Translations under genes and position numbers: made by a program
The notes under the pieces: model-generated
Told to the model about the DNA's origin: nothing
The model's input: only the letters and a program-made list of their open reading frames with translations
The model's database searches: none
In this document: piece by piece, positions 11,929-26,944 of the stretch
How positions within the stretch are numbered: the stretch's first letter is position 1
Layout of the letters: the number at the start of each line of letters is the position of its first letter
Assembly (NCBI RefSeq): GCF_000022265.1
Contig: NC_011979.1
Coordinates: forward strand, 360,001 to 392,000
Direction of reading: 5' to 3'
Length of the DNA stretch: 32,000 nt
DNA from: Geotalea daltonii FRC-32
GTDB lineage: Bacteria > Desulfobacterota > Desulfuromonadia > Geobacterales > Geobacteraceae

Positions 11929-12330
11929 TTACAGCTGCTCGATGAGCTCTATCCCGCGGTGCTCCACTTCAATCAGCTCGATGACCACCTCGTGGCCCGA
12001 GGATTTCAGTTGAAGCCCTCTGACCTTGACCGGAAAGGCACTGCTGACTTGCCAGGCGGCAATTTTCTGATGGGTATCGTTGTGGAGAGTGATGCTGATG
12101 GTGCGGCGTTCGATGGTCTGGGGTTTGACACTGCACAGCCACTTGTAAAGATCGGTGCCGAAAGTGAGCATGCCGCTTGATAGAACCAGGTTAGCCGTCT
12201 GCAGTTTCAGCTTTTCCCGATCGTGGAGGGACAGGTCTTCCTGGTCAAGGGTAACCTGCGAAAATCCGGCAAAGATACCATGGCTCTCCACAAGGTATCT
12301 GAATTGGGGAAACGGCATTTCACCATCCAT
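11929..12330 (-). CDS. Orphan phage-tail-tube-fold protein (T4 gp19 / Afp1 / PVC1-like 'conserved phage tail region protein')
   Basis: 133 aa. By eye it aligns with contractile-injection tube proteins: FRYLVESHGIFAGFSQV (cf. F.VEIDGI.ia.FsevsG), LVLSSGMLTFGTDLYKWL (cf. itLkrGit.d..lw.W), RRTISITLHNDTHQKIAAWQVSSAFPVKVRGLQLKSSGHEVVIELIEVEHRGIEL (cf. g.I.l.d..g.e.arW.f.nAwP.k..gp.l.A.snevaiEel.l.hegle). Confidence 0.55.
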   Translation of the reverse strand: MDGEMPFPQFRYLVESHGIFAGFSQVTLDQEDLSLHDREKLKLQTANLVLSSGMLTFGTDLYKWLCSVKPQTIERRTISITLHNDTHQKIAAWQVSSAFPVKVRGLQLKSSGHEVVIELIEVEHRGIELIEQL

Positions 12331-12495: not shown

Positions 12496-12801
12496 ATGAA
12501 ACGAGCTGTTTTGATCATTCTGCTGTTGTCAATTGGTGCGTTGTCTGCGGTTGCATTTGCCGCAACGCCGAAAAATCCGGGTCCCGAGATCATCAATCTG
12601 AAAATGGGGGTGATGATACTGCCTTTTTCCCACAGGAAGCACCAACAGGACCTGAACAATGAATGCTTTCACTGCCATCCGAAAAAAACCGGCGGCAAGA
12701 TTGACAACTGGAACAAGGAAACTGCCCACCAAATCTGCATCAGCTGTCATGATCTGGAAGAAAAAGGACCAGTGGAATGCAAGCAGTGCCATAAGAAATA
12801 A
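12496..12801 (+). CDS. Triheme cytochrome c7 (PpcA family)
   Basis: AAAGGAGGG RBS and signal peptide ...SAVAFA. Three CxxCH motifs (CFHCH, CISCH, CKQCH). LPFSHRKHQQ...C..CH and the C-terminal GPVECKQCHKK closely parallel PpcA (FPHKAHQK...CKKCH ... GPTKCGECHKK). Confidence 0.85.
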   Translation: MKRAVLIILLLSIGALSAVAFAATPKNPGPEIINLKMGVMILPFSHRKHQQDLNNECFHCHPKKTGGKIDNWNKETAHQICISCHDLEEKGPVECKQCHKK

Positions 12802-13285: not shown

Positions 13286-14737
13286 TTATTCCAGCTGGTA
13301 GACCTGCAGAATCCTGCGGAACGACGGGGACGAAAGTGAGACTTCAGGCAGATACTCGCCGATCAATTCCCTGCTCCAGTGCCGGCCGGTATGGCGATGC
13401 TCTTCCCGGGTGGTGAAACGGTAGCGGTAATAGAGCGCCCGCACCTTAAGCGGGGGCTTGTCGGGGAACGGGTTCTTCTTCAATAGTCCCAGCACTTGCC
13501 GGTCCCCCTGAAGAAGCTTGGCCAGGAAATGAATAAACCACAGCGGCCGGGACCGGGAAGGCATGGCTGCAAACCACATCAGCCAGTCGAGACGCAGATG
13601 GTAGGGGGCGATGAGCGGCGGTATTCCCTGCGGGTCCCCCGGTTTGCCGCGGAATTCATACTCTACCCAGCGGCTAGCAGTGCCGGGTGCGTTATCGGCC
13701 GTTCCCTCGACAACGATTTCGTAACGCTCACGGGTAATGCTGCCAAAGGCGCCATAGGTGTTAACCAGATGGAAGGGGTCAAAGCTGGTGTTCATGATCT
13801 GGGCCGGAGAGATCATGTTCAGCATCGGCTGGATGCTGCGAATTGCCACCAGAATCGCAACTCCCCAGCAGGCGGCATCGAACAGCGGCGGTGGCGGTGC
13901 AAAAGGTGGAACCTCCAGCGCCAGGAATGGAAGCTGGCCGGTGGTGACAGTGGAGAAGCAGAGGATGAAGGCAAGCCAGTTGAGCCAGGCAAAATTACCG
14001 CTGACGATGATGAAAAAGAGAAAGGCGGCAGAGACGACGCCGCCCGTCACTGCCAGCGGTTGGGGAGCGAAGTAGAGACAGGGCATGACCAGTTCGGCCA
14101 GATGGTTGAAGGCAACTCCGCATCGCCGCAGCACGGCAGGGAGGAGATGGAAAAAACGGCTGACGGGGTTCGGCATGGGCTGGGTTTCGAAGTGGTAGTC
14201 CAGGCAGCTCAGGTCACGCCAGCATGGGTCACCGCGCATCTTGATCAGCCCGGCGCCGAACATGACACGAAACAGGACCCAGCGGTAGAGCCAGATGATG
14301 ACAATGGGCGGCTCAACGCCGACCGGTCCGAGAAAGATGGCGAGGAAACCGCATTCAAGAAGGAGAGATTCCCAGCCGAAGGCGTAGAAATCCTGACCGA
14401 TGTTGACATAGGACAGATAGATGGCCCAGAGCAGAAACCAGACGATCATTGATACAGTTGTTCCATATGCCTCGGAAAGACCGGTCACTGCCGCAAGGGA
14501 GAGACCGGTGCCAAGCCGGGCAAAGAGTTGGAAGGCCCTGTCAGAGGGAAACAGGTAAAAGATGCTGGGGGCGGAACGGAACGGTACCAGCTGCATGTAG
14601 TGGGTAGCCGGTAACAGCCCCTTCTGGCCGCACAACGGCCGGAACTGGTTGAGTGCCACCAGAAAGCCCATCAGATAAATCAAGCCCAGACCCCGTTGCA
14701 GCAAGAGCCTAGGCACCCAGTATTCCGAGGATTCCAT
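13286..14737 (-). CDS. Lipase maturation factor (LMF1/DUF1222) family integral membrane protein
   Basis: Multi-TM protein. N-terminal LLLQRGLGLIYLMGFLVALNQFRPLCGQKGLLP, plus CWRDLSCLDYHFETQPMPN and a C-terminal soluble region NTYGAFGSITRERYEIVVEGT...WVEYEFRGKPGD, characteristic of LMF-family proteins. GGAGG lies 5 nt before the ATG. Confidence 0.7.
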   Translation of the reverse strand: MESSEYWVPRLLLQRGLGLIYLMGFLVALNQFRPLCGQKGLLPATHYMQLVPFRSAPSIFYLFPSDRAFQLFARLGTGLSLAAVTGLSEAYGTTVSMIVWFLLWAIYLSYVNIGQDFYAFGWESLLLECGFLAIFLGPVGVEPPIVIIWLYRWVLFRVMFGAGLIKMRGDPCWRDLSCLDYHFETQPMPNPVSRFFHLLPAVLRRCGVAFNHLAELVMPCLYFAPQPLAVTGGVVSAAFLFFIIVSGNFAWLNWLAFILCFSTVTTGQLPFLALEVPPFAPPPPLFDAACWGVAILVAIRSIQPMLNMISPAQIMNTSFDPFHLVNTYGAFGSITRERYEIVVEGTADNAPGTASRWVEYEFRGKPGDPQGIPPLIAPYHLRLDWLMWFAAMPSRSRPLWFIHFLAKLLQGDRQVLGLLKKNPFPDKPPLKVRALYYRYRFTTREEHRHTGRHWSRELIGEYLPEVSLSSPSFRRILQVYQLE

Positions 14738-15057
14738 GGAAACCTCCGGAAGGCACAGCCGGGAGAAAATCGGTAATCAGGCTGCTGTTTTACCAGACCG
14801 ATATCAGGCAGCAGAGGTCTCGCTGCACCCGGTCTGTTCCGGAACGTCTTCGATGAATTTATGGTAGTCCATTTCATCCTTCCTTACGTTCGATTTTCCC
14901 TTGGCCTATTAAAAAAGCATAACATAGCCGTGATGACGGTCAACGGCCCGGCAAGGCCGGGAATCAGGTCCCCGGTGACAATAATCACATATTAAAGGAG
15001 TTCTTTGTCGGTATCCTGAAGCAACGGTAAAACCGCTACAGTGCAAGGAGACGACAA

Positions 15058-15393
15058 ATGCTGAAAAAAATGACAAACATGGTTTTCCCCATGGTCCTCA
15101 TGCTGCAGGCCTGCTTATTCACATATGCCCATGCCGATGCTTCCGCCAGCCGAAAGAGTGCCATTCTGCAGCAGAGGGGTCCCATGCTGCAGAAGCATGC
15201 CTCTGCCGCCGTTGTGCCTGAAAGAACGGAAAACGGCATGCTGTATAAAGCAAATTGCGCCATCTGTCATGGACAGGCCAAACGTGGCCAAGCCAGCTCG
15301 CTGATCGAGAATGCCATCAGGAAAAACACCGGAGGAATGGGCTCGCTCAGGTTTCTGACCCAGGAGCAGATACGGACCATAGCTGATTTCTGA
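15058..15393 (+). CDS. Small secreted monoheme c-type cytochrome
   Basis: AAGGAG RBS lies 7 nt upstream. Signal peptide present. Single CAICH. The C-terminal domain YKANCAICHGQAKRGQASSLIENAIRKNTGGMGSLRFLTQEQIRTIADF is paralogous to the C-terminus of the 21816-22457 protein. Confidence 0.75.
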   Translation: MLKKMTNMVFPMVLMLQACLFTYAHADASASRKSAILQQRGPMLQKHASAAVVPERTENGMLYKANCAICHGQAKRGQASSLIENAIRKNTGGMGSLRFLTQEQIRTIADF

Positions 15394-15407
15394 TTACCGA
15401 AGGTTAA

Positions 15408-15435
15408 TTGATAAAAAAATTTAATTAGATATAAT
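15408..15435 (+). promoter_or_regulatory. Strong sigma-70-type promoter for the tolC-like/PMT/GT2 operon
   Basis: TTGATA (15408-15413), 16-bp spacer, TATAAT (15430-15435), about 35 nt before ATG 15471. Confidence 0.55.
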
Positions 15436-15470
15436 CCTCTTAGAATTCGCACTTCCAAGGGGATTTTTTT

Positions 15471-17051
15471 ATGCGCCGAGATTGGCTGAAATTGCCACTC
15501 CCCATCATCATCCTGGTGCAACTGCTAAGCATTGACGGTCAGTGTGAAAGCCTTCCCCAAGAACTCAACCTTTCCCGCACGGATGCCATAAAAATGGCCA
15601 TAACTGGCAACATAGAGGTTCATAACGAATCTCTTTCCTCATTCATGGCAGAACTTGATTCCATCCGCAGCCGCAGCATTTACAACCCGCTACTGACACT
15701 TTCCGCAAACAGCGGCATAAATGCTTCACCGGGAGAGCCTTTTCGAACCAGAAACACCCAGACCACCATCGGACTTTCCCAGAACCTTCCCACCGGCGGA
15801 AGTATCTCCGTTACCACCCAGACCGGTTACGCTACCGCCGAATCGGAAGACCCGGAATTGACAAGCAGGAACTGGCAGACATCTCTGGGGCTTAACCTAA
15901 GTCAGCCGCTGTTACGCAACGCAGGCAGGGAAACGAACGAGTTTTCCATTTTTGCTGCCGACAGCAATCTACAGGATGCCGTGGAGAGGTTTCGCTCCAT
16001 CATTATCGATACCGTTCACGCCGTCGTCACGTCCTACAACCGTCTTTATACCCTGCGTCGGATTCTGGAGACGCGCAAGGCTGCCCTAGCTTCTGCTGAA
16101 ATGTTGCTTGAAGGTGTCAGGCAAAAGGTAACCCCGGAAACACCACTGGCCATGGAGGTGGCAGATGCCGATTTTGCCGTTGTCCAGCGTCGCAAGGAGC
16201 TGGTGGAGGCGGAACGCAATGTAAGGGACCATGAGGCAGGCTTCCGTTACCTTATCGGTCAGGAAGGGAAAGCCACCATAATCCCCGTTGATCCACCCTC
16301 CCGGGAGGAGCCGCAGGAGACGGAGGAACAGGCTGTAGTGGCTGCACTCGGTCTACGTCCCGAACTGCTGCAGTTGCAAATTTCATATAATGTGGCGCAG
16401 GTGCAGGAGCGCATCGCAAGGCGGCAGGCCTGGCCCGAGCTTTCCCTGACGGGTAGCGGCGGACTTAACGGCACTGGTGAGACTATGAGCAAAAACTGGA
16501 AGGAGATCATTGACGGCAGAAGACGATTTTGGACCGTCGGCATGCAGTTCAGCTATCCCATCGGCAATACGGCAGCCGTCAATGATTACCGCAGGAGCAA
16601 GATCAGGACCGAACAGTTGCTAAACCAGATCAGGTCGCTCAGCTGGAGGATCCGCAATGAGGTAGAGTCGGACATGCGGGCGTTGATTTCTGCCCGATTG
16701 CAGGTGCGGATGGCCGACATGTCCTTGAGGATAGCGGAGAAGCGTCTTGAAGAATACCGCAGGAACAATCAGGCCGGTACAAGCACAGTTCAGGATGTGA
16801 TCGATGCGCAAAACGATCTGACCTTTGCCAGAAATTCACAGGTGGATGCGGTAGAAACCTTTGCCAGCGCGGTGTCAAGGCTCTGGAGGGACATGGGCAC
16901 GCTTTTAGACCACCACGGCATTAAAATAGATGCTGAGCATGTGGGGAAAATAGCTGGAAAGACAGCCCTGAAAGAGGAATCGAAGCCGGAGGGGCTGGGC
17001 CTGCAACTACCCGACCTGGAATGGGCCATGGAAGCCTTCAGGGCCAAATAA
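15471..17051 (+). CDS. TolC-family outer membrane efflux/channel protein
   Basis: Signal peptide. Two-repeat OEP architecture with typical segments (LSRTDAIKMAITGNIEV, LGLNLSQPLLRNAGRE, RPELSLTGSGGLNG, VQDVIDAQNDLTFARNSQVDAV). Confidence 0.8.
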   Translation: MRRDWLKLPLPIIILVQLLSIDGQCESLPQELNLSRTDAIKMAITGNIEVHNESLSSFMAELDSIRSRSIYNPLLTLSANSGINASPGEPFRTRNTQTTIGLSQNLPTGGSISVTTQTGYATAESEDPELTSRNWQTSLGLNLSQPLLRNAGRETNEFSIFAADSNLQDAVERFRSIIIDTVHAVVTSYNRLYTLRRILETRKAALASAEMLLEGVRQKVTPETPLAMEVADADFAVVQRRKELVEAERNVRDHEAGFRYLIGQEGKATIIPVDPPSREEPQETEEQAVVAALGLRPELLQLQISYNVAQVQERIARRQAWPELSLTGSGGLNGTGETMSKNWKEIIDGRRRFWTVGMQFSYPIGNTAAVNDYRRSKIRTEQLLNQIRSLSWRIRNEVESDMRALISARLQVRMADMSLRIAEKRLEEYRRNNQAGTSTVQDVIDAQNDLTFARNSQVDAVETFASAVSRLWRDMGTLLDHHGIKIDAEHVGKIAGKTALKEESKPEGLGLQLPDLEWAMEAFRAK

Positions 17052-17065
17052 ATAATCAGGCTAAC

Positions 17066-18847
17066 ATGACAAAACCCGAAACCCACATGCCATCCCAGGC
17101 TGGATCCATATCGGCAGAGCCAAGCCGGGCGTGCTTCAGTCCCGGCAGGGAGGATGTCCTGATTATGGCCGCCATGGTCGTCATCTATCTGCTGATAGCA
17201 CTCCCTAATCTGGGCAGCTTCAAGGTGCCTGCCACCGTCTGGCAACCCTTGCGGAAGGGAGAATCACTGGTCCTTGATCTGGGGCGTGAGGTTCCCGTTT
17301 CCAGGATTTATTATTACTGCGGTATCAACGACAAGCGATTTCAGCAGACAAGCTTTTCCCTTGATTATGAAACAAAGGGCAGATTCCGCCCCTTGGCCCA
17401 TTTCGAAAAGAATGACTGCAATATCTGGAAGTTCCAGGACGCAGGCGTTACAACCTCCCGATTGCGGATAGTAGCGGATACTGCCGGCGGCGCCCTGAAC
17501 GAACTGGTCGTTCTGGAAAAGGGAGCGCAGGTCCCGCTGGCCGGGATGAGGATTTCGGCTCTTAACTCCGCCGGTACTGAACCGCAGCATCTGCTGGATG
17601 AGCAGTCTACCTTCGAAGCTGGCCCCTCCTTTATCAACGGGTTCTATTTCGATGAGGTATACCACGGCAGGACGGCCTACGAGCATCTGCAGCGGATGGA
17701 GCCTTACGAGAACACCCACCCCCCCCTGGGAAAACTGTTCATTGCTTCAGGCATAGCAGTTTTCGGCATGAACTCTTTCGGCTGGCGCATAGCAGGAACC
17801 CTGTTCGGTGCGGCACTGCTGCCGGTCATGTATCTTTTCGGCAGGAAGCTGTTCGGCAGGTCTTTTTTCGCTTTCTGCGCCGCTTTTCTGATGATGGTGG
17901 ACTTCATGCACTTCACCCAGTCGAGGATCGCACTGATCGACATTTTCGGCGTCTTCTTCATCACCGCGATGTATTATTTCATCCATGATTTCTACGTGAA
18001 CAGCTGCCCCATGGCTCCCATAAAAAAGAGCGCGGTCCCGTTGATCCTGGGTGGGGTTTGCTTCGGGCTCGGCGCAGCATCCAAGTGGATCGCCATCTAT
18101 GCCGGGGCAGGGCTGGCCCTGCTGGTGGCCCTGCAGCTCTTCCGCAGTTTCAGGAATTATCGGGGAGAACTCGGAACGCACCGCTTTTTCTGGTGTTACC
18201 TGTTGCCTGTCATCTGTGTCTGCCTGTTTTCCTTCCTGGTAATCCCGGCAATCATCTACCTTCTGTCCTACCTTCCCTATCTGATGGTTGAGGGGGAAAC
18301 GCACGGGTTCATGGACATACTGCGAAACCAGCTGGACATGTTCGACTACCACAGCGGGCTTAAGGCCACCCATCCGTTTTCTTCCCCCTGGTGGAGCTGG
18401 CCGCTTGATCTTCAGCCGGTCTGGTTTTACACCGCGTCCGGTCTTCTTCCCGGCCGGACCTCGACCATCGCATCTTTCGGTAATCCCGCCATCTGGTGGA
18501 CCGGTCTACCGGCAGTCATAGCCGCTGTCATCATTGCCGCCAGGAAGCGGGAGCGGCGGATGGCCGTCATCTTTACCGCCTTCGCCTTTCAGTATCTGCC
18601 GTGGATGTTCGTCACGCGGCTGACATTCATTTACCACTTCTTTTCAGCAGTGCCGTTCATGATCCTGTGTCAGGTATATGTAATCCAGCAGGCCATGGAG
18701 AGGTGGCCCAAGGCACGGTGGGCGGTCAGTGGCTATTTGACCGTTGCCGGACTGCTGTTCATTATCTTCTATCCTGCCCTGTCGGGAATGGAAGTCTCAA
18801 CGGACTATATCGACAGGCTGAGGTGGCTCAAAAGCTGGATATTCTAA
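17066..18847 (+). CDS. GT39 / PMT-family polyprenyl-phosphate-mannose:protein mannosyltransferase-like GT-C enzyme, with an extra N-terminal soluble domain
   Basis: The loop-1 DE motif and surroundings YFDEVYHGRTAYEHL...ENTHPPLGKL are diagnostic of PMT/GT39. More than 10 TM segments. A ~110-aa domain after TM1 (...VSRIYYYCG...SRLRIVADTAGGALNELVVLE) resembles a galactose-binding/discoidin-like fold. Start chosen at ATG 17066; track start 17021 overlaps the tolC-like gene. Confidence 0.75.
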   Translation: MTKPETHMPSQAGSISAEPSRACFSPGREDVLIMAAMVVIYLLIALPNLGSFKVPATVWQPLRKGESLVLDLGREVPVSRIYYYCGINDKRFQQTSFSLDYETKGRFRPLAHFEKNDCNIWKFQDAGVTTSRLRIVADTAGGALNELVVLEKGAQVPLAGMRISALNSAGTEPQHLLDEQSTFEAGPSFINGFYFDEVYHGRTAYEHLQRMEPYENTHPPLGKLFIASGIAVFGMNSFGWRIAGTLFGAALLPVMYLFGRKLFGRSFFAFCAAFLMMVDFMHFTQSRIALIDIFGVFFITAMYYFIHDFYVNSCPMAPIKKSAVPLILGGVCFGLGAASKWIAIYAGAGLALLVALQLFRSFRNYRGELGTHRFFWCYLLPVICVCLFSFLVIPAIIYLLSYLPYLMVEGETHGFMDILRNQLDMFDYHSGLKATHPFSSPWWSWPLDLQPVWFYTASGLLPGRTSTIASFGNPAIWWTGLPAVIAAVIIAARKRERRMAVIFTAFAFQYLPWMFVTRLTFIYHFFSAVPFMILCQVYVIQQAMERWPKARWAVSGYLTVAGLLFIIFYPALSGMEVSTDYIDRLRWLKSWIF

Positions 18848-18862
18848 GGACCGGAGGTCACT

Positions 18863-19825
18863 ATGTCTGAAGCGACAAAGTTTTCAATCGTGGTGCCGGT
18901 GTTTAACGAAGAAAAAGTCCTTCCCGAGACCTACAGACGGCTCCATGAAGTGATGGAGGGGCTGAACGAGCCCTACGAGATTATCTTCGTCAACGACGGC
19001 AGCTCCGACCGCACCATGTTCATACTCGACAATATCTGCGAGCAGGATCGGCACATCAGGATTATCGACTTCGCCAAGAATTTCGGCCACCAGACTGCCA
19101 TCACCGCAGGGATGGACTATGCGGACGGCGACGCGGTAGTGGTCATCGATGCCGACCTTCAGGACCCGCCGGAACTGATACCGCAGATGATCGACCGCTG
19201 GCGGGAGGGGTATGACGTGGTCTACGGCAAGCGGAAAGAACGCAAGGGGGAAACCCTTTTCAAAAGGTTCTCGGCAGCCCTTTTTTATCGGCTGATGCGC
19301 AAAATGACCGATGTGGATATCCCCGTGGATACCGGCGACTTCAGGCTGATCGACCGCAGGGTCTGTGACGCCCTCAAATCCATCAAGGAGAGAAACCGCT
19401 ATATCAGGGGCATCATCAGCTGGCTCGGTTTCAGGCAGATCGGCGTGGAATTTTCCCGCGAGGAGCGCTTTGCCGGCGAGACCAAATACCCCATGAAGAA
19501 GATGCTCAAGTTCGCCTTCGACGCCATTACCTCCTTTTCCTTTAAGCCGCTGAAACTTTCATCCTACCTGGGGATGTCCCTGTCATTTTTCAGCTTCGTC
19601 TACCTGATGGTGGTGGTCTACCAGAAGTTCTTCACCGACCGGACCGTTGCCGGTTGGGCCTCCAGCATGGTCATCAGCCTCTTTTTCAACGGTATCGTGC
19701 TGATGATGCTGGGCATTGCCGGTGAGTACATCGGCAGGATCTATGACGAGACCAAGGGGAGACCCCTCTACGTGGTGCGCCGGGTTAGGAACTTCGCCGT
19801 GGAGAAGGACTGCCGGGGAAGGTAA
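18863..19825 (+). CDS. GT2 polyprenyl-phosphate sugar synthase (GtrB / Ppm1 / ArnC-like)
   Basis: GGAGG RBS. Motifs FSIVVPVFNEE, IIFVNDGSSD, VVIDADLQDPPE, GDFRLIDRR, and two C-terminal TM helices, the typical GtrB/DPM1 architecture. Confidence 0.85.
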   Translation: MSEATKFSIVVPVFNEEKVLPETYRRLHEVMEGLNEPYEIIFVNDGSSDRTMFILDNICEQDRHIRIIDFAKNFGHQTAITAGMDYADGDAVVVIDADLQDPPELIPQMIDRWREGYDVVYGKRKERKGETLFKRFSAALFYRLMRKMTDVDIPVDTGDFRLIDRRVCDALKSIKERNRYIRGIISWLGFRQIGVEFSREERFAGETKYPMKKMLKFAFDAITSFSFKPLKLSSYLGMSLSFFSFVYLMVVVYQKFFTDRTVAGWASSMVISLFFNGIVLMMLGIAGEYIGRIYDETKGRPLYVVRRVRNFAVEKDCRGR

Positions 19826-19833
19826 AACCTCCG

Positions 19834-21168
19834 TCATTCCGGCAGCAATCGACCTTCCTGGTTCGACCAGCTTCTGGCTATGCATCGCAACATGTAAAGA
19901 AACAGCAGCAGGTTAGCCATGGAAGTGCCGAGCAACAGTGGATCATTTCCGGGTATATGGGTAATCCCTCGGGTGCTGGCAATCAGCACATGGACCACAT
20001 TAATGTAGTGAGTGATGCTGAAACCGGTGAAGATGACGAGCAGCTGCATGCTCCCCGCATAAAGAGCAGCCAGGAGGGCAAAGATCAGCACCGGAAACAG
20101 ATAACGTTCGTGCATTCTGGCGGAAAAGATGAAAACGGCGGCAATGATGAACATGCCCATCAGGTACAATCTTGTTTCTTCGCTGGCGCAGAAATAGACT
20201 CTGAAAGCGAAAAGGGTTGCCAGGACGATAAAGAGGGTGCCCCAGCTCCGATAAGGGAAAAACAGCCAGGAGGCTGTTTCATTCGTGAAATTCGCTCCGC
20301 TCAGGGCGAACAGGTTGTAGGCATTCACCGTTGCATACGGATAAGAAGTCAGGGTGGCCCTGTAATGGTCGAAGACCCACAGGGGCCCTTCCTCCAGGGC
20401 GAAAGGCGCTACGCCCACCATGAATACCAAACCGCCTGCCGCAGCAGCCACTAATATCCGGGTCCATATCCCGTTGACCGGCTGCAGGAGCAGCCGGTCA
20501 ACGGCCGAAGCGAGCAGCAGGGGGGTAAAGATAAGCGCTTGTGGTTTGATCAGCAGCGCGACGACGAACCAGCTGACGGAGGAAGCAAGGTGGTTTCCGG
20601 TGAGGAAGAAGATGGAGAGCACGATGAAGAGGGTAAAAACCGCATCCACCTGTCCCCACACCGCCGAATCGAGGATCACTGCCGGATTGAAGCCGTACAT
20701 GAGGGCGACGGCAAGAGCCGCTTTTTTGCCGAAACGCAGATTCGCCAACCGGTAAAGCAGAAATGTGGTGAGCATGTCGGCAATGATCGCCGGCAGTTTT
20801 ATAAGTGCCAGAAAACCTGAGCCTCCATCCGGCAGGTCCAGCAGTTCCTTTAGCTTTCCGATGAGAAACAGCACGTACATGTAGCCCGGCGGGTAATCGG
20901 CAAAGAACCCCCCGGAATAGAATCCGGACAGATTTTCGGCAGCTCGCACTGCCCAGGCCTGAAAGGTTTGCACGTCGCAGCTATAGCCTTCCATGGAGGC
21001 GGCCAGAAGCAGTCTGATCACCAGCATAGTTGCCATGGCGAGCCAGACAAGCCATGGTCTCGGTTTAACGTCCTGCGTGCCGCTGACATGGAAGGCGTAT
21101 TTCCCGCCGATGCTCATACCTAGGGCAAACAGTACCGGAACCAGCCCGAGCAGGAGAAGCGATGCCAT
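19834..21168 (-). CDS. GT-C superfamily integral membrane glycosyltransferase (Gpi18/ArnT-related, DUF2029-like)
   Basis: 444 aa with about 11 TM segments. The N-terminal periplasmic loop CDVQTFQAWAVRAAENLSGFYSGGFFADYPPGYMYVL is typical of COG5542-type mannosyltransferases. GAGGTG RBS. A 9-nt gap follows the upstream gtrA-like gene. Confidence 0.55.
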   Translation of the reverse strand: MASLLLLGLVPVLFALGMSIGGKYAFHVSGTQDVKPRPWLVWLAMATMLVIRLLLAASMEGYSCDVQTFQAWAVRAAENLSGFYSGGFFADYPPGYMYVLFLIGKLKELLDLPDGGSGFLALIKLPAIIADMLTTFLLYRLANLRFGKKAALAVALMYGFNPAVILDSAVWGQVDAVFTLFIVLSIFFLTGNHLASSVSWFVVALLIKPQALIFTPLLLASAVDRLLLQPVNGIWTRILVAAAAGGLVFMVGVAPFALEEGPLWVFDHYRATLTSYPYATVNAYNLFALSGANFTNETASWLFFPYRSWGTLFIVLATLFAFRVYFCASEETRLYLMGMFIIAAVFIFSARMHERYLFPVLIFALLAALYAGSMQLLVIFTGFSITHYINVVHVLIASTRGITHIPGNDPLLLGTSMANLLLFLYMLRCIARSWSNQEGRLLPE

Positions 21169-21177
21169 TTTAACACC

Positions 21178-21624
21178 TCATGGGTCAATGGGCTTGGTCT
21201 CGGGCCTGAAGACCAGCTGCCTGCTGCCGAAGAAGCTAAACAGCATTGTCAGAATGGTTGCGGCGATCTTTGATGTCAGGAGAGAAAAGTTCAGCGTGGA
21301 ATGGAACAGATAGACGAGCAGCACCGATATTCCCAGGGCGGTCAGGCTGACCATGGCAAATCGTAGCATTTCTGCTGATTTGATGCCTGTCATGCCGAAA
21401 GTCCAGTATTTGTTGAAAAAATAGCTATTGGCAATGCCGCAGCTGTATGAGCAGGTCTGGGCCAGCAGGTAAGGCATGCCCAGCATGTCCAGGAGAAAGA
21501 ACAGGCTGAAATCCACTGTCGTATTGAGGATACCGACCAGGTTGAAGCGGGTCAATTGCCTCACTAATGTTGACAGTGTCTCAGGCTGCCTGCTTGAGAA
21601 TGCTTTCCCACCCTGTGCCCCCAT
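21178..21624 (-). CDS. GtrA-family small membrane protein (candidate polyprenyl-phosphate-sugar translocase)
   Basis: Four TM helices. LTRFNLVGILNTTVDFSLFFLL and NSYFFNKYWTF are GtrA signatures. Start is uncertain: ATG 21624 chosen, track gives TTG 21642. Confidence 0.75.
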   Translation of the reverse strand: MGAQGGKAFSSRQPETLSTLVRQLTRFNLVGILNTTVDFSLFFLLDMLGMPYLLAQTCSYSCGIANSYFFNKYWTFGMTGIKSAEMLRFAMVSLTALGISVLLVYLFHSTLNFSLLTSKIAATILTMLFSFFGSRQLVFRPETKPIDP

Positions 21625-21686
21625 TTTTAAACTATACCGCAACTTGGAAATGATACTATTTTAATATTATGTATTTAGAGCCACCC

Positions 21687-21714
21687 TTGACATGGAGTTG
21701 CCCGTCAGTAGAAT
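21687..21714 (+). promoter_or_regulatory. Sigma-70-type promoter for the Pro-Thr-rich cytochrome gene
   Basis: TTGACA (21687-21692), 16-bp spacer, TAGAAT (21709-21714). It predicts a ~95-nt leader before ATG 21816. Confidence 0.5.
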
Positions 21715-21815
21715 GCATAGTATGGGTATATTCTAATTTTGCCTGCAACTGAGGAAACCGACGACAATCGGAAGCACGGCGCTACGGGGCCTACTAAAAA
21801 AAGGAGGTACACAGC

Positions 21816-22457
21816 ATGCTGAGACTGAAGAAAACCCTGGCGATCCTGATATGCATGAGCTTCCTGCAATCAGGAGCAATGGCGGTGGCCAATGATGATG
21901 AAGATCGAGGTAAAGCTACAGGTGGCAGCACCTATGACCGTGATCGTGACAATGACCGGGACCGGGACAATGACCGGGAACGGGATGATGACCGAGACCG
22001 AGACAGGGATAAGAAAAAGGACCGACGTCATAGACCGCATAAGTCTCCGACACCAAGCCCAAAGCCAGTGGTAAGCCCGACACCAAAACCGAGTCCGACG
22101 CCAACACCGACGCCAACACCGACGCCAACGGCAACACCGACACCTAAACCAAGCCCGACACCAACTCCGACTCCAACGGCAACACCAACACCGGCACCAA
22201 CGGCAACACCAACACCGACACCAACACCGACACCGACACCGACACCGACACCTAAACCAACTCCGACTCCAACTCCAGCCGCCTCCGGTGCAACCCTTTA
22301 CCAGACCTACTGCTCAGGTTGCCATGGCTCACCGACAGGGAAAGGATGGAGTGCAAGCGCGATCCAGTCGGCCATAAACAACAACAGGGGTGGAATGGGC
22401 TTCCTTTCCACATTGACCTCAAGTCAAATCCAGGCGATTTCAACTGTAACCAAGTAA
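21816..22457 (+). CDS. Secreted monoheme c-type cytochrome with N-terminal Asp/Arg alternating tract and long Pro-Thr linker
   Basis: AGGAGG RBS. Signal peptide ending AMA|[35 protein letters not shown] (residues 41-73). A ~78-residue (S/T)P tract (residues 77-154). C-terminal [10 protein letters not shown]...[22 protein letters not shown] heme domain. Confidence 0.85.
21936..22034 (+). repeat. Coding low-complexity repeat encoding the alternating Asp-Arg tract
   Basis: Imperfect tandem copies of gacaatgaccggga(c/a)cggga and gaccgaga(c). They translate to an (D-R)n polyampholyte. Confidence 0.8.
22044..22277 (+). repeat. Coding microsatellite-like repeat (acaccgac/acgccaac units) encoding the (Thr-Pro)n linker
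   Basis: Runs of ACN-CCN dicodons. By my count the translation has about 28 Thr and 5 Ser, alternating with Pro. Confidence 0.85.
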
Positions 22458-22474
22458 GAGGATCCGGGGAAAGC

Positions 22475-22505
22475 AACGGGGCTCCTGCCAGAGCCCCGTT
22501 TTTTA
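22475..22505 (+). terminator. Rho-independent terminator after the PT-rich cytochrome gene
   Basis: 10-bp GC-rich stem aacggggctc/gagccccgtt (22475-22484 pairs with 22491-22500), loop ctgcca, T-run to 22505. Confidence 0.75.
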
Positions 22506-22585
22506 TTTGTTCCGGTTGTATGACGCGTTGACAGCTACCACTAACCTCATGGTCCTCAAGGTCAGGCAACTGCAGGTCTGTTCCA

Positions 22586-23977
22586 TCAGCTCTTTCCTGC
22601 TGCCTTGATCTCGAAGATGCGAACCAGACCCGGGGTCAGTTTTACCTTTTCCAGCGTTTTGCCGTTATACGACCTGAACGGCAACGGCGAGCCGTCCAGG
22701 GCATATTCCACGACCGCCGATCCCGGTCGGGGATGGAGCCGCAGCGTCGGTTCTCCCTTCTTGTCCCAGACAAAGAGGACCTGGCTTCCATCGGGCCTGA
22801 CGAAGAGGTGGCTGTACAGTTCCACCTTTTTCCCGCTGGTAACCTCAACCTTCAGTTCCCGGTCGGCAATGGTCAAGTTGCCCACATCGAGCAGGCCGAT
22901 CAGGCGTTTGATGGTGAAGAACGCCATTTTTCGCGTTCTGTCGGGACGACTGATACCAAGGTAATAGTTTTCCCCCCCGCCGATGACCGTTTCGGACTGT
23001 TTGCGCTCCTTGATCTGATAGATACCCAGATGTTCCACCCGGGGGGAAGCCAGGAATGTGGCGAAGGCCCGTGCCCACCAGTTAGCCTGGTCGGTTTCGC
23101 TTTTCCCCGGCGTGTTGGCGAAGCCGGCCTCATTGATCCAGATCGGCTTTCTGCCGCAGTACTGGTCGGCCCAAGGGATGAAGGTGCCCTGGAAATGATT
23201 GGGGTAACCCTGGTCAAGATAGTTTTCCAGCACGATATTCTTTTCCGTCCAGGTCTCAGGATAGGCATGGAAGGGAAGAATGTGAAAGCTGTCGCCGCTG
23301 CCGTACTCGTCACAGGCTGCTTTGACCCAGTCGGCGTCGGGGTAGACCATGCCGCCAAAGATAACCGGCTTGGTCCGGTCGCTGCTGCGTATGGCCTCAG
23401 CCCCTTTCTGCAGTACCTGGTTATACTGCTCCGCCGTGCCGTCCCACCACTGTCGCACGTTTTCCTCATTGTAAATTTCGTAGGAGAGGATGTTCTTTTG
23501 GCTGGCCAGGGCACCGCTAAGGTGTGAAACGAAATTGCTCCAGTCCTGGAGCCGGGCCGGAGGGTCGTTCCAGGCTTCCTTGTCGGTTCCTCCCCCTGCA
23601 GCCCATGGAGCGGTATAACCGATGTAGGGGCGCAGGCTCATGCCATGTTGCGTAGCGAGCTCGACAAACTGGCGCAGCCACTTGAAATCGTACTGCCCCT
23701 GAGCAGGTTCGTAATCACCCCAAGCCAGGCTTCCCCTCCAGGTGGTCAGCCCCAGTTCCTTCATCAGCCTGAAGTCCTTCGCCACCTCCTCCAGGTCTTC
23801 CCCCTTTACGTAATCCTGCAGGATGCTGAATGAAACCGGCTTGGTGAATGCTTGAGCGGCGCCGGCAGCAGTAGTGCTTCCACCACCGGCAGTGCCATGG
23901 GCGCCCATGGGGTGGTGACAGCAGGCGCTGGAGAACAGCAGAAACAATGAGACTACAACAGTCGTCACTTTTTGCAT
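22586..23977 (-). CDS. Clan GH-A (beta/alpha)8 glycoside hydrolase, probable lipoprotein (GH5/GH39/GH42-like; family not resolved)
   Basis: GAGGTG lies 5 nt before ATG 23977. Signal/lipobox-like LLFSSACC. Motifs TWRGSLAWGDYEPAQGQYDF, acid/base candidate YEIYNEEN, nucleophile candidate PIWINEAGF. C-terminal beta-sandwich-like tail. Confidence 0.65.
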   Translation of the reverse strand: MQKVTTVVVSLFLLFSSACCHHPMGAHGTAGGGSTTAAGAAQAFTKPVSFSILQDYVKGEDLEEVAKDFRLMKELGLTTWRGSLAWGDYEPAQGQYDFKWLRQFVELATQHGMSLRPYIGYTAPWAAGGGTDKEAWNDPPARLQDWSNFVSHLSGALASQKNILSYEIYNEENVRQWWDGTAEQYNQVLQKGAEAIRSSDRTKPVIFGGMVYPDADWVKAACDEYGSGDSFHILPFHAYPETWTEKNIVLENYLDQGYPNHFQGTFIPWADQYCGRKPIWINEAGFANTPGKSETDQANWWARAFATFLASPRVEHLGIYQIKERKQSETVIGGGENYYLGISRPDRTRKMAFFTIKRLIGLLDVGNLTIADRELKVEVTSGKKVELYSHLFVRPDGSQVLFVWDKKGEPTLRLHPRPGSAVVEYALDGSPLPFRSYNGKTLEKVKLTPGLVRIFEIKAAGKS

Positions 23978-24109
23978 CTCATCACCTCGGCATTTTATTG
24001 GCATCAATAAGTTAAAGTATAGCAGAGACTAAAGGCGGCGCTGCTGTTACTGCTACCTGCGTGACGGGGCTCACTTCCTTCGTGACGGGATTCCTGCAGA
24101 CTGTCGGGT

Positions 24110-25924
24110 ATGGAAACGATAATACAAAAGACAAAAGACGGGATTCTTGCCAAGGTGGCCGGTCTTGCCGGACTGGATCGAGTGAAATTGACGCAGATGA
24201 GGCGTGCCATCGGTTTTGTCACCCCCCATCGCAGAACCGTTGCCATAATTCTGGCCATAATGCCGGTTATTGCCGCCCTTGGTGCCCTGGAACCGCTTAT
24301 CTACAAGCTGGTGTTCGACCGCCTGGCAGGCAATAAAGGGCTCGCCAGCGTGCTTTTGGCGGTAGGCGCCATTATGCTGGCAGCGCTGATCAGGGAAGGA
24401 TTCAACGCCATCTCCAACCGTCTCAGCTGGAAAGTGCGGCTTGCAGTGAATTATCAGCTCCTCGATGCCACAACCAGCCGCCTGCACGCGTTACCCCTTT
24501 CCTATCACCGTGGTGAGACGGTCGGCGGCCTGATGACCCGGCTCAATCATGGCATCAACGGCTTCGTCGCCGCCGTTGCCGATATTGCCTTCGGTATCCT
24601 GCCGGGGCTGATGTACCTGGCCATCTCGGTGGTGGTCATGGTTCGCCTGGACTGGCGGTTGTCGCTGGTGGTGATCCTCTTTGCGCCGCTCCCCGCCCTG
24701 ATCGGCGTATTTGCCTCCAAAGAGCAGACCGCCCGGGAAAGCTCCCTGCTCTATCGGTGGGGGGTGGTCTTCTCCCGCTTCAACGAAGTCTTGGCGGGAA
24801 TCGTCACCGTCAAGAGCTTTGCCATGGAAGACGCTGAACGGAAACGATTCATGGGCGACGTGTCCGAAGCCCACGGTATCGTCAGGAGAGGGGTGGCCAC
24901 CGACACCAAGATAGGGGCAACCCAGAACCTTGTGGTGATGCTGGCCAAGGCATGTTCCATCGGCTGCGCCGTATATCTTATTTCCCGTGGTGAAACGACG
25001 GTGGGCACATTGATGGCCTTCCTCGGCTACCAGGGGGGTCTGTTCGGCCCGGTCAACAGCCTGACCAGTATCTACCAGACCCTGCGCAAGGCGACCATCT
25101 CCTTCGACATCATTTTTTCCATTCTCGATGCCGAAGACAGGCTGCAGGACGCGCCACATGCGGTGGCGGTGCAGCAGGTCAAGGGGGAGGTTCTTTTTCG
25201 CAATGTCCACTTTGCCTATAATGAGGACAGGACCATTCTCAGCAACATAAATCTTCATGTGCAGCCCGGGGAGACGGTGGCCATCGTCGGTCCGAGCGGT
25301 TCGGGAAAGACTACCCTCATCTCGCTGCTGCAGCGATTCTACGATCCCACCTCCGGCTCCATCAGGCTGGATGGGGTGGATCTGCGCTTCCTGCAGCAGC
25401 GTTCGCTCAGGCAGCAGATCGGCGTCGTCCTCCAGGACGCCCTGGTCTTCAACGACACCATCCGCAACAACATCGCCTACGGCAAGCCCGATGCGACCAA
25501 GGCCGAGATCGAAGCGGCGGCGGTGGCGGCCAACGCTCACAAGTTCATCTGCCAGCTCCCCGGCGGCTACGATTTTATAGTGGGTGAACGGGGCAGCCGC
25601 ATCTCCGTAGGTGAACGGCAGCGGATCAGCATTGCCAGGGCCCTGTTGAAGAACCCCTCCCTTCTCATCCTCGACGAGGCGACCTCGGCACTGGACGCGG
25701 AATCGGAGGCCCTGGTGCAGGATGCCCTGGACAGGCTGATCAAAGGCCGGACCAGCTTCATCATTGCCCACCGCCTCTCCACCATCGTCGGCGCCGACCG
25801 CATCCTGGTCTTGAAAGACGGCCATATCATCGAGTCGGATACCCATCAAGCCCTCATGGAGCAGGGGGGCTACTACGCATCCCTGGTGGAATGCCAGTCG
25901 CGGGGGTTGCTGCTGGCCAGCTAA
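24110..25924 (+). CDS. MsbA-like half-size ABC exporter (fused TMD-NBD)
   Basis: Six-TM N-terminal domain. Walker A GPSGSGKTT, Q-loop, signature VGERGSRISVGERQR, Walker B LLILDEATSALD, H-loop IIAHRLST. Confidence 0.9.
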   Translation: METIIQKTKDGILAKVAGLAGLDRVKLTQMRRAIGFVTPHRRTVAIILAIMPVIAALGALEPLIYKLVFDRLAGNKGLASVLLAVGAIMLAALIREGFNAISNRLSWKVRLAVNYQLLDATTSRLHALPLSYHRGETVGGLMTRLNHGINGFVAAVADIAFGILPGLMYLAISVVVMVRLDWRLSLVVILFAPLPALIGVFASKEQTARESSLLYRWGVVFSRFNEVLAGIVTVKSFAMEDAERKRFMGDVSEAHGIVRRGVATDTKIGATQNLVVMLAKACSIGCAVYLISRGETTVGTLMAFLGYQGGLFGPVNSLTSIYQTLRKATISFDIIFSILDAEDRLQDAPHAVAVQQVKGEVLFRNVHFAYNEDRTILSNINLHVQPGETVAIVGPSGSGKTTLISLLQRFYDPTSGSIRLDGVDLRFLQQRSLRQQIGVVLQDALVFNDTIRNNIAYGKPDATKAEIEAAAVAANAHKFICQLPGGYDFIVGERGSRISVGERQRISIARALLKNPSLLILDEATSALDAESEALVQDALDRLIKGRTSFIIAHRLSTIVGADRILVLKDGHIIESDTHQALMEQGGYYASLVECQSRGLLLAS

Positions 25925-25984: not shown

Positions 25985-26131
25985 ATGACCACAACATTAA
26001 TTCTGTAAAAAAATTAATAGAAAACCACAAGTGAACATGAATAGAAAGTCTTGAAAGGGTGATGGTTGGCATTTGCCGGGGGGGCGAAGGACCCCCTTGC
26101 AAAAGTGGGTTATGTGAGATGAGGAATGAGA

Positions 26132-26443
26132 TTAACCCCAATAAGCTTTATCGTGGGGACCTAGGGCAATAAATTTGAGAGTATCGTCTGGGCATTGCTG
26201 ACAATCGGCACAGAGAACGATAGCATCATCACCTTTTTTCCGGCAAATCGAGCAGTACAGATAAATGATCAGAAAATTTCGACGAACAGAGCAACTGTAA
26301 TAACCCCGGAAATTTCCTTTAAGGGGTTCACCCAAAGAAATCGGATTTGCGGTGATCATGTCAATTTTTTTACGGACGACATCCTTTATTGCGTTATGTT
26401 TTTTAAGTGATGTGACGAAATCATCACTAAACATGAGGTTCAT
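26132..26443 (-). CDS. RelE/ParE-superfamily type II toxin with an internal Cys-rich insertion
   Basis: LGEPLKGNFRGYYSCSVRRNFLIIY ... LKFIALGPHDKAY matches the RelE/ParE core. CSICRKKGDDAIVLCADCQQC is inserted between the strands. ATGA overlap with the upstream antitoxin gene. Confidence 0.65.
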   Translation of the reverse strand: MNLMFSDDFVTSLKKHNAIKDVVRKKIDMITANPISLGEPLKGNFRGYYSCSVRRNFLIIYLYCSICRKKGDDAIVLCADCQQCPDDTLKFIALGPHDKAYWG

Positions 26444-26694
26444 TTAAATACCTCATCATAACTTTGCCATTTGACAGCACCTGATTTGATCCGTGTAATT
26501 GTCTCAATGAGGGAATCAGTGAAATCCGGATCGCTCAAAATTATTTCAGTAGGATCGTTTTCCTTGAGACGCTTCAATTTCAGGGCAAATTGGGTAAAAA
26601 CCTCGGAGACGGTCGTTCTCTGGCTTTCCGCATATTCTTTGACAAACTCAATCAGATCACTATCAAGGGTGAGATTGATTCGGGCTTTTTGCAT
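26440..26694 (-). CDS. Ribbon-helix-helix-type antitoxin
   Basis: N-terminal KARINLTLDSDLIEFVKEYAESQRTTVSEVF (beta-strand plus two helices). 84 aa. Translationally coupled to the downstream toxin. Confidence 0.65.
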   Translation of the reverse strand: MQKARINLTLDSDLIEFVKEYAESQRTTVSEVFTQFALKLKRLKENDPTEIILSDPDFTDSLIETITRIKSGAVKWQSYDEVFK

Positions 26695-26807
26695 GGCACA
26701 CCTCCTGTGAGTATATTATGCGTATATCATGCTCATTGTCAAGATGGTAGTCAAGAGTTGCATGGTTTGTCTACTGGAGACACCAAATCCCTACTTATGA
26801 ATTATTC

Positions 26808-26923
26808 TATCATTGCAGTGATATTTTAGATTCAAAAACGCTTAAAAGAGTTATTAATATCACTGCAGTGATATTAATGTTGCATCAAGGCATATTTTCA
26901 ATTATTGTAGCACTGCAATAGTA
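26808..26923. promoter_or_regulatory. Three phased palindromic operator candidates in the hipBA / relBE-like divergent control region
   Basis: TATCATTGCAGTGATA (26808-26823). ATATCACTGCAGTGATAT (26857-26874, a perfect 18-bp palindrome). TAGCACTGCAATAGTA (26908-26923). Centres are exactly 50 bp apart, and each site is preceded by a related A/T-rich flank (ATTATTC, TTATTAA, ATTATTG). Confidence 0.6.
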
Positions 26924-26944
26924 TTATAGAGTGTAAAACTCACG

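Follow-up and report, generated by a model that had tools for sequence, protein, structure and literature searches.

Work on bacterial protein O-glycosylation by GT39 enzymes, the family of the protein O-mannosyltransferases (PMTs), is nearly all actinobacterial, with one genetic study in a thermophilic Firmicute besides, and reviews still regard its biological purpose as enigmatic (PMC11727336, PMC12757957). Cellulomonas GT39s add up to 65 hexoses to the Pro-Thr (PT) and Pro-Ser (PS) linkers of secreted cellulases (PMC11727336, PMC12757957). In Caldicellulosiruptor bescii, deletion of the single GT39 gene, Cbes_1864 (UniProt B9MKU4), abolished protein glycosylation and destabilized CelA, whose linkers are alternating Thr-Pro; the enzyme has 556 residues, with a domain resembling a carbohydrate-binding module (CBM) at residues 32-124 in loop 1 and a GT-C core from residue 169 (PMC6151902; Cbes_1864 is also treated in PMC12757957). 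Here we describe a seven-gene cluster at positions 15058-22457 of a 32,000-nucleotide stretch (the window) of the genome of Geotalea (formerly Geobacter) daltonii FRC-32. On a modest balance of probability, we take it to be a self-contained cassette for periplasm-side protein O-glycosylation, in which a GT39 PMT initiates, a GT87-like transferase extends and the main acceptor is a secreted cytochrome c with a PT linker.

Four further described systems bear on this locus. The mycobacterial GT-87 enzyme PimE elongates protein O-mannose with undecaprenyl-phosphate mannose (UndP-Man), the same donor that Pmt uses (PMC12757957). In yeast Pmt4, the MIR domain grips an S/T-X-S/T motif some ten residues away from the acceptor site, and it may also thread the mannosylated product (PMC12586580). 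In streptococci, GtrB/PgfS-type GT2s and YfhO-type GT-Cs attach sugars to S/T-rich disordered regions outside the cytoplasm, which are thereby shielded from proteolysis (bioRxiv 10.1101/2024.05.05.592596). The fourth is the cytochrome PgcA of Geobacter sulfurreducens, of which domains II and I are PDB entries 8QJG and 8QJ6; tethered cytochromes of this type have been characterized only as recombinant, presumably unglycosylated proteins, and the purpose of their (PT)x tethers is explicitly left open (PMC11520253).

Directly supported at the Geotalea locus are the family, fold and motifs of four enzymes, a secreted, PT-linked cytochrome of the PgcA type and the conserved clustering of their genes. 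A reading made from the letters alone (the sequence-only reading) had proposed a full polyprenyl-phosphate-sugar pathway for protein O-glycosylation on the periplasmic side, built on a GT39 PMT, and this proposal was supported in every computational test available. All the genes it listed are present, at coordinates that are exact or off by a few codons and with family matches far above chance; the assignments to GT39, GT2 and GtrA all lie above threshold. Its range also takes in a gene that it did not discuss, encoding a TolC-family outer-membrane protein (OEP; 15471-17051). At the annotation level the gene functions are already known, and systems of this kind have been described in Actinobacteria, fungi and C. 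bescii. The novelty lies in the arrangement: a diderm metal reducer has the cassette in compact form, the GT87-like partner is once found fused to the PMT, and a PT-tethered cytochrome and a TolC-like protein are persistently linked to the enzymes.

The GT39 enzyme and its donor pathway

Both predicted glycosyltransferases of the GT-C class are there. The first, which we call the PMT, matches Pfam PMT (PF02366) with 62.8 bits (cut-off 22.7; E 4.6e-17), and its C-terminal module of four transmembrane (TM) helices is present (PMT_4TMC, PF16192; 80.8 bits, cut-off 32.4; E 1.2e-22). Its FDEVYH sequence, in the first extracytoplasmic loop, had been singled out as the 'DE' loop diagnostic of PMTs. 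This sequence aligns with FDEVHF of yeast Pmt4, and HPPLGK at residues 218-223 aligns with the eukaryotic PMT motif; D196, E197 and the HPPLGK residues are invariant among 48 aligned homologues. The family has 1090 scored matches. Among the best 120 of these, the DE motif is found in 119, the sole exception being a truncated entry, and essentially all have both DE and HPPxGK.

A search of all PDB sequences with the PMT-family profile matched, among GT-C enzymes, only the fungal Pmt1, Pmt2 and Pmt4. When the AlphaFold model of the PMT (mean pLDDT 87.7, pTM 0.89) was compared with the PDB by Foldseek, ranks 1-7 were all Pmt4, Pmt1 or Pmt2 (E 2e-16 to 2e-10, TMq 0.57-0.59). AglB, ArnT and PglB followed at E 7e-6 to 5e-4 and TMq 0.33-0.41, with ArnT (5ezm and 5f15) at ranks 9-11 behind all the PMTs, and the Emb and ALG enzymes also trailed (E 7e-6 or worse, TMq at most 0.41). 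The match to Pmt1, Pmt2 and Pmt4 is about ten orders of magnitude better than that to ArnT, AglB or PglB. Because the top Foldseek matches and the PDB profile search both point to the Pmts and leave the other GT-Cs far behind, we conclude that the PMT is a GT39-fold enzyme and is neither ArnT-like nor oligosaccharyltransferase (OST)-like. An ArnT/GT83 or GtrC-like identity was rejected on the hidden Markov model (HMM) and fold rankings.

Might the acceptor nevertheless be something other than a protein? The cluster would then modify lipopolysaccharide or O-antigen, an exopolysaccharide, peptidoglycan or a glycolipid, in the manner of GtrABC or ArnT, and the cytochromes and the OEP would be unrelated neighbors. 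A GT2, a GtrA and a GT-C are the generic layout of periplasmic glycoconjugate modification; structural relatives of the second GT-C (ALG6, PIG-M, PimE) act on lipid-linked glycans; and the window has genes for a GH5-like hydrolase, an MsbA-like ABC transporter and a third GT-C close by. The first GT-C, however, is a GT39 by HMM, motifs and fold, all the characterized GT39s cited here are tied to protein O-glycosylation, and ArnT is a much weaker fold match (E about 1e-5 and TMq 0.40, against 2e-16 and 0.59). Moreover, the GH5 and ABC genes are missing from the Pelotalea locus described below, so they are not core, and the association with the cytochrome and the OEP survives rearrangement. We consider a non-protein acceptor very unlikely; lipid or polysaccharide modification of the GtrC or ArnT kind, which the sequence-only reading had itself named as an alternative, is not favored by the HMM and fold rankings.

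The start of the PMT gene at 17066 agrees with GenBank; metagenome pipelines call a protein of 560 residues. Since conserved residues and the first TM helix precede the start of the 560-residue call, the start at 17066 is preferable. The PMT family is abundant in Clostridia. Within Geobacterales it occurs in Geotalea, Pelotalea, Oryzomonas, Geomonas and Geobacter sp. SVR; other Desulfuromonadales have it too, as do metagenome-assembled genomes (MAGs) labelled Thermodesulfovibrionales, Verrucomicrobia and Steroidobacteraceae.

An extra, lectin-like domain had also been ascribed to the PMT. Periplasmic loop 1 does hold an all-beta domain of about 115 residues, which follows TM1 and precedes the DE motif; its strands fall at residues 67-167 of the AlphaFold model, in which both it and the DE loop are placed in the periplasm. 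It is CBM32-like by profile (PDB 4a41, E 7.5e-4) and by fold (modules 4a42, 4a41, 2v72 and 4uap in Foldseek). Some PMT relatives have Pfam matches to F5/8-type-C (PF00754) or CBM_4_9, and many, at about 810-850 residues, carry an additional N-terminal secreted CBM-like domain and an extra helix. The MIR beta-trefoil of eukaryotic PMTs was found neither as a Pfam MIR match in the PMT nor as a trefoil in its model. By analogy with Pmt4, it is plausible that the CBM32-like domain is a functional analogue of the MIR domain.

The donor side of the pathway was also borne out. The predicted GT2 matches PF00535 (131 bits, E 4e-38); the DAD of its DxD motif lies within DADLQDPPE, and two hydrophobic segments are present at its C terminus. 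It matches Synechocystis GtrB (5ekp) with E 1e-97 and 330 bits over residues 5-306, ArnC with E 1e-51 and 179 bits, and the Pyrococcus synthase of dolichyl-phosphate mannose (Dol-P-Man; DPMS) with E 2e-20 and 77 bits. Its best NCBIfam model is that of streptococcal PgfS, at 296 bits, under the PgfS cut-off. The sequence-only reading had spoken of protein O-mannosylation. O-glycosylation is supported; the sugar may be other than mannose, since the GT2 is GtrB-like rather than Dol-P-Man-synthase-like. The GtrA-type protein, likewise foreseen, matches the GtrA/DPMS transmembrane domain PF04138 with 92.5 bits (cut-off 26.1) and is a putative flippase for the lipid-linked sugar.

A GT2 encoded beside a Clostridiales PMT (locus L005, 914-1870) is 67% identical to the Geotalea GT2, as against 46% between the two PMTs. 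Because the identity of the GT2s exceeds that of the PMTs, the comparison suggests that the PMT-GT2 pair moved horizontally between Firmicutes and Desulfobacterota.

The second GT-C (GT-C2) has a confident GT-C model (pLDDT 93.4). In Pfam it matches PMT_2 alone, at 29 bits. Pfam GT87 (PF09594) does not match the GT-C2 of the window, which has 796 homologues; 25 of 47 aligned homologues match GT87 weakly (best E 1.1e-8). Foldseek places GT-C2 near ALG6 (TMq 0.69), GPI-MT-I (0.61) and PimE (0.54-0.57), all with E <1e-4, and the family profile matches GPI mannosyltransferase 1 (E 6e-9). These fold relatives take a monosaccharide from a polyprenyl-phosphate donor and add it to an existing glycan. 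GT-C2 adjoins the PMT in all the Geobacterales loci, and the trio of GT-C2, PMT and GT2 is also adjacent in a Clostridia MAG (L007). In a spore-forming Firmicute, P0010 (L016, 2780-5833) is a natural GT-C2::PMT fusion of 1017 residues (39% identity over residues 7-396, E 6e-89); its gene is followed by one for a small EamA-like membrane protein and then by a GT2 gene. On the analogy with PimE, the conserved adjacency to the PMT and the natural fusion, GT-C2 is predicted to be a glycan-extending transferase that uses the same lipid-linked donor as the PMT.

The PT-linker cytochrome as candidate acceptor

Secreted cytochrome genes had been noted on both sides of the enzymes, and both are present, each encoding a mono-heme protein. 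The downstream one turns out to be more than a flank: it encodes a PT-linker protein, and across genera this gene stays with the cluster. From its N terminus, the protein comprises a signal peptide, a charged segment rich in D and R, a Pro-Thr linker and a C-terminal heme domain. The linker, of 89 residues, has 36 Pro, 28 Thr and 6 Ser, that is, 34 Ser/Thr. The heme domain, of about 50 residues (CSGCH ... GGMGF), holds the single CxxCH of the protein and matches domain II (8qjg, E 3e-13) and domain I (8qj6, E 3e-10) of G. sulfurreducens PgcA. Judged by its sequence, the protein is a one-heme relative of the 'hemes on a string' cytochromes. No lipobox of the form [LVI][ASTVI][GAS]C was found in its signal peptide. 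There is no other PT-rich open reading frame (ORF) in the 32-kb window. The small upstream cytochrome has a heme domain that aligns with those of the PT-cytochromes, as a paralogue; its match to Cytochrome_CBB3 (24.3 bits) is below the cut-off.

An exhaustive HMMER search for the heme-domain family (E <=1e-3; representatives clustered at 50%) gave 872 representatives, with up to 19-20 tandem domains and up to 1635 residues. PT/S-rich linkers occur in 29 of the best 150 of these 872, and hence the linker is not a fixed attribute of the heme domain. All eight cytochrome copies beside the PMT cluster carry one.

Two short-read assemblies of the same locus (L013 and L015) end at the PT repeat of the cytochrome gene or call a mere 60-residue fragment of it, and the protein collection does not hold a 213-residue cytochrome with this start. 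PT-linker cytochromes are probably under-represented in metagenome gene catalogues.

The cluster was compared across nine Desulfobacterota-type loci: the window, a deltaproteobacterial MAG (L001), Geotalea toluenoxydans (L002), Pelotalea chapellei (L003), Geobacter sp. SVR (L006), two metagenomic contigs (L009 and L011), a Desulfuromonadales MAG (L010) and L012. An orthologue of the PT-linker cytochrome lies beside the PMT cluster in eight of them (the window, L001-L003, L006 and L009-L011), whose PMTs are 47-87% identical to that of the window, and in each of the eight it is the only PT-rich ORF. Its heme domain is conserved, with linkers of 41-119 residues. At least five gene orders are represented. 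In the window type, the PT-cytochrome and GtrA genes are divergently oriented; L009, L010 and L011 have the PT-cytochrome gene immediately 5' of the PMT or of OEP-PMT. The small cytochrome is kept in the cluster in L001-L003, but in Pelotalea it has been relocated downstream together with the OEP, and the outer flanks there are unrelated. We read the pairing of PT-cytochrome and PMT as a conserved functional linkage and not as a statistic, because the eight loci are orthologous and are not independent trials.

The conserved synteny and the known preference of GT39s for PT linkers are our reasons for proposing the PT-linker cytochrome as acceptor; they suggest that the PT tethers of such cytochromes may be sugar-coated. 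In the proposed pathway, the GT2 would work on the cytoplasmic side, transferring a monosaccharide from a nucleotide sugar to undecaprenyl phosphate, and GtrA would help move the lipid-linked sugar to the periplasmic face, a role that is putative even for the GtrA family. There the GT39 PMT would, through its DE-motif site, place the sugar on Ser/Thr of unfolded, Sec-exported polypeptide; on the linker Thr and Ser this initiation would occur during or after Sec export. The loop-1 CBM32-like domain may act as MIR does, holding the S/T-rich or already glycosylated chain and so permitting repeated modification of long linkers. With the same donor, GT-C2 would then lengthen the glycan by another sugar, in the way that PimE acts on mycobacterial O-mannose. 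The main, possibly dedicated, acceptor would be the adjacent PgcA-like cytochrome, with the 34 Ser/Thr of its tether, and the glycan would stiffen the tether and shield it from proteases. The TolC-like OEP and the small cytochrome that lacks a linker are probably partners of the tethered cytochrome, with a part in export, in anchoring or in supplying electrons.

An alternative is that the enzymes form a general O-glycosylation system for many S/T-rich envelope or extracellular proteins, PgcA-like multiheme cytochromes included, and that the PT-cytochrome is one substrate among them or is merely co-regulated. Actinobacterial, fungal and C. bescii GT39s and the streptococcal GtrB/PgtC2 and Pgf systems all serve multiple substrates; the same enzymes are found without an adjacent PT protein in L012 and in the Firmicutes loci; and the heme-domain family has many multidomain proteins, some with PT/S linkers. 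Such a system would not ordinarily be expected to keep a PT-cytochrome adjacent in eight of nine Desulfobacterota-type loci despite rearrangement. We rate this alternative as improbable, while granting it real weight.

Could the linker instead be left bare? Under this explanation it is a flexible, protease-resistant, unglycosylated spacer, the PMT targets the TolC-like protein or other envelope proteins, and the genes are clustered because they are regulated together as an outer-surface redox module. The PgcA papers treat (PT)x as a tether that needs no modification in vitro, and the OEP gene is translationally close to the PMT gene, ending 14 nt 5' of it. Against this, the OEP has no S/T-rich disordered segment, either in its sequence or in the PT scan, PT linkers are a classic GT39 substrate, and L006 retains a PT-linker cytochrome and has no OEP. 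We give an unmodified spacer little credence.

The OEP itself matches PF02321 with 134.6 bits and TIGR01844 with 120 bits, the latter below cut-off, and is a distant match to TolC structures (E 5e-7). A TolC-like gene lies beside the PMT cluster in seven of the nine Desulfobacterota-type loci, in varied positions and orientations; the proteins of L009 and L010 have a C-terminal SPOR domain. No conserved efflux partner accompanies the TolC-like gene across the cluster loci. The recurrence of this gene may bear on how PT-tethered cytochromes reach the cell surface. A more ambitious idea, which we hold to be quite unlikely, is that the seven conserved genes form a hitherto unrecognized Geobacterales envelope redox module in which an O-glycosylated, mucin-like tether is needed to export, anchor or thread the PgcA-type heme domain, through or at a dedicated TolC-like channel. 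If it were true, cytochromes of the 'hemes on a string' kind would have glycosylated (PT)x linkers in their native hosts, and the question of why (PT)x is conserved would have an answer; glycosylation has not been considered in the PgcA literature.

Several points weigh against the cassette with the cytochrome as its main acceptor. There is no experimental record of any glycoprotein in Geotalea or Geobacter, and the three PgcA papers, in which PgcA was studied as recombinant protein made in Shewanella, nowhere mention glycosylation. The PMT reaches only 98.4 bits on the NCBIfam equivalog model for actinobacterial Pmt (NF058602; cut-off 800), and hence is a homologue and not an actinobacterial equivalog or orthologue. 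As judged from the GT2, which is closest to a glucose-type GtrB, the donor would be a lipid-linked monosaccharide, with mannose and another hexose such as glucose equally likely. The synteny cases come from orthologous loci and so do not count as independent observations. In L004, L005, L007 and L008 (Firmicutes and Nitrospirota) the enzymes are present and the locus has no PT-rich ORF; in the Desulfobacterota-type L012 and in L016 they are present and the neighbors that were checked have no S/T-rich stretch. Because L012 and the Firmicutes and Nitrospirota loci lack a PT-rich neighbor, the enzymes are not restricted to a PT-cytochrome acceptor everywhere. Finally, the reading of the locus as a cassette does not account for the TolC-like OEP.

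Our literature search turned up no account of GT39 glycosylation in bacteria of the Geobacter type, and none of glycosylated PgcA-like cytochromes. Since about 7 kb of a cultured bacterium encodes all four enzyme steps together with a likely acceptor, the locus offers a compact system to dissect or to rebuild elsewhere, as has been done with Cellulomonas GT39 operons in C. glutamicum; it is suited to questions of specificity, of the sugar, and of what the loop-1 CBM and the GT87-like elongator do. Should native linkers prove to be glycosylated, the stiffness, reach, mineral binding and protease resistance of the tethers would need re-evaluation.

Gene map and neighboring genes

The coordinates of the features are collected in Table 1. 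The clustered genes are separated by 14, 15, 8 and 9 nt. On these short gaps, the promoter-like sites and the terminator-like hairpin, the likely layout has OEP-PMT-GT2 as one operon and GtrA-GT-C2 as a second, convergent one, with the cytochrome gene transcribed on its own. In G. sulfurreducens, pgcA is under the control of a GEMM-I riboswitch. A scan for Rfam riboswitches found none at the gathering score in the whole window and none at E <=1 in 14600-22700.

Table 1. Features of the proposed glycosylation cluster in the window, with TolC-like genes of related loci
Feature	Locus	Coordinates	Strand	Details
Small secreted mono-heme cytochrome c	Window	15058-15393	+	111 aa, no linker; signal peptide and CAICH in sequence; GenBank ACM18685.1
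Sigma-70-like promoter candidate, 5' of OEP-PMT-GT2 operon	Window	15408-15435	+	TTGATA-16-TATAAT, 11/12; consensus match only
TolC-family outer-membrane protein (OEP)	Window	15471-17051	+	526 aa; PF02321; GenBank ACM18686.1
GT39 PMT-type GT-C	Window	17066-18847	+	593 aa; PF02366 and PF16192; GenBank ACM18687.1
CBM32/discoidin-like beta-sandwich, PMT periplasmic loop 1	Window	17228-17575	+	About aa 55-170; model, Foldseek, profile
FDEVYH, catalytic 'DE' motif of GT39	Window	17648-17665	+	aa 195-200 of PMT
GtrB-type GT2 polyprenyl-phosphate glycosyltransferase	Window	18863-19825	+	320 aa; PF00535; GenBank ACM18688.1
DADLQDPPE of GT2	Window	19148-19174	+	aa 96-104
Second GT-C (GT-C2), GT87/PimE/ALG6/PIG-M-like	Window	19834-21168	-	444 aa; fold and profile; 100% identical to a G. 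daltonii FRC-32 protein
GtrA-family small membrane protein	Window	21178-21624	-	148 aa; PF04138; GenBank ACM18690.1
Sigma-70-like promoter candidate for PT-linker cytochrome gene	Window	21687-21714	+	TTGACA-16-TAGAAT, 11/12; consensus match only
PT-linker mono-heme cytochrome c, candidate acceptor	Window	21816-22457	+	213 aa; PgcA-type heme domain
Pro-Thr linker of PT-linker cytochrome	Window	22026-22292	+	89 aa
CSGCH heme site of PT-linker cytochrome	Window	22311-22325	+	Sequence
Intrinsic-terminator-like hairpin 3' of PT-linker cytochrome gene	Window	22475-22500	+	10-bp stem (7 GC pairs), then TTTTATTTGT
TolC-like gene	L003	13987-15510		
TolC-like gene	L009	13339-15465		
TolC-like gene	L010	13364-15586		
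TolC-like gene	L011	6492-7961		

GenBank names ACM18685.1 'cytochrome c, 1 heme-binding site', ACM18690.1 'membrane protein, GtrA superfamily' and the PMT, ACM18687.1, 'undecaprenyl-phosphate--protein glycosyltransferase, putative'; in UniProt the PMT is a polyprenol-phosphate-mannose--protein mannosyltransferase. The annotated name of the GT2 is 'undecaprenyl-phosphate glycosyltransferase, DPM1-like family'.

A GH5-like hydrolase (22586-24007), the MsbA-like ABC transporter (24110-25924) and an LMF1-like protein (13286-14737, - strand) were considered as core parts and rejected, because their genes are collinear only in the close relatives L001 and L002 and are absent from the Pelotalea locus with its unrelated flanks. 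The last of these is a bacterial protein that strongly matches two domains of lipase maturation factor, LMF1 (202 bits) and LMF1_C (172 bits); its gene is collinear in L001 and L002 and not in Pelotalea. About 7 kb downstream of the cluster, 29887-31146 (- strand) encodes the third GT-C-type membrane protein, which is PIG-V/Mannosyl_trans2-like (PF04188, 31.6 bits). A lone protein resembling the T4 gp19 tail tube (11929-12330, - strand; PF06841, 63 bits) is conserved in L001 and L002, and its gene is sandwiched between those of a multiheme cytochrome (10442-11926) and a cytochrome c7 (12496-12801). The stretch 26001-28509, with a GC content of 0.40 against about 0.57 elsewhere and a gene for a HipA-family toxin at 27211-28509, is probably a small mobile or toxin-antitoxin island.

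Comparison with known systems

The actinobacterial set comprises the GT39 Pmts Rv1002c, Cg_1014, Sco_3154 and Celf_3080 with Ppm1, which synthesizes polyprenyl-P-Man, and the GT-87 PimE. The window shares with it a lipid-linked monosaccharide donor, a GT39 initiator with the DE motif and a GT87-type periplasmic elongator, and PT-rich linkers are the favored acceptors there. Unlike the PMT of the window, the actinobacterial Pmts have no described loop-1 CBM, and their genes are scattered where those of the window are clustered. The donor synthase of the window is also GtrB-type and not Dol-P-Man-synthase-like, so its sugar may not be mannose.

Among eukaryotic enzymes, yeast Pmt1-Pmt2 and Pmt4 (6p25, 9e61 and 9i5k) are the best fold matches; FDEV and HPPLGK align, and the C-terminal four-TM module is shared. 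Eukaryotic PMTs also have an accessory lumenal domain that binds sugar or peptide, as the periplasmic domain of the window PMT may. In place of the MIR beta-trefoil between TM7 and TM8, however, the window PMT has a CBM32-like beta-sandwich in loop 1. Identity in structural alignments is 13-21%, and the donor lipid in the window would be undecaprenyl and not dolichyl.

The streptococcal GtrB/PgtC2 and PgfS/PgfM1 systems use a GtrB/PgfS-type GT2 to make an Und-P-sugar that a GT-C transfers, and the window GT2 scores 296 bits on PgfS. Their GT-Cs are of the YfhO family and not GT39, and their hosts are Gram positive.

With G. sulfurreducens PgcA (8QJ6, 8QJG and 8QK0) the window cytochrome has in common a homologous heme domain on a (PT)x linker. 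It differs in having one heme domain where PgcA has three, no canonical lipobox and an N-terminal D/R-rich segment. It is also genetically linked to a glycosylation cassette, whereas no glycosylation of PgcA has been reported.

By published architecture, the closest characterized relative of the window PMT is Cbes_1864 and not an actinobacterial Pmt. Both are GT39s of similar size (556 residues, against 593 or, in metagenome calls, 560), and both have a CBM-like domain in loop 1 before the GT-C core; in the window PMT this domain lies at about residues 55-170, with the DE motif at residue 196. In each case the gene lies near an acceptor gene whose product has Thr/Pro linkers, the window acceptor being a candidate. 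Clostridia commonly have close homologues of the window PMT (40-52% identity), and these are often followed by the same GT2, as in L005 (67% GT2 identity) and L007. C. bescii is a Gram-positive thermophile whose acceptors are secreted cellulases; the window, by contrast, belongs to a diderm metal reducer and pairs the enzyme with a candidate c-type cytochrome acceptor and a TolC-like protein.

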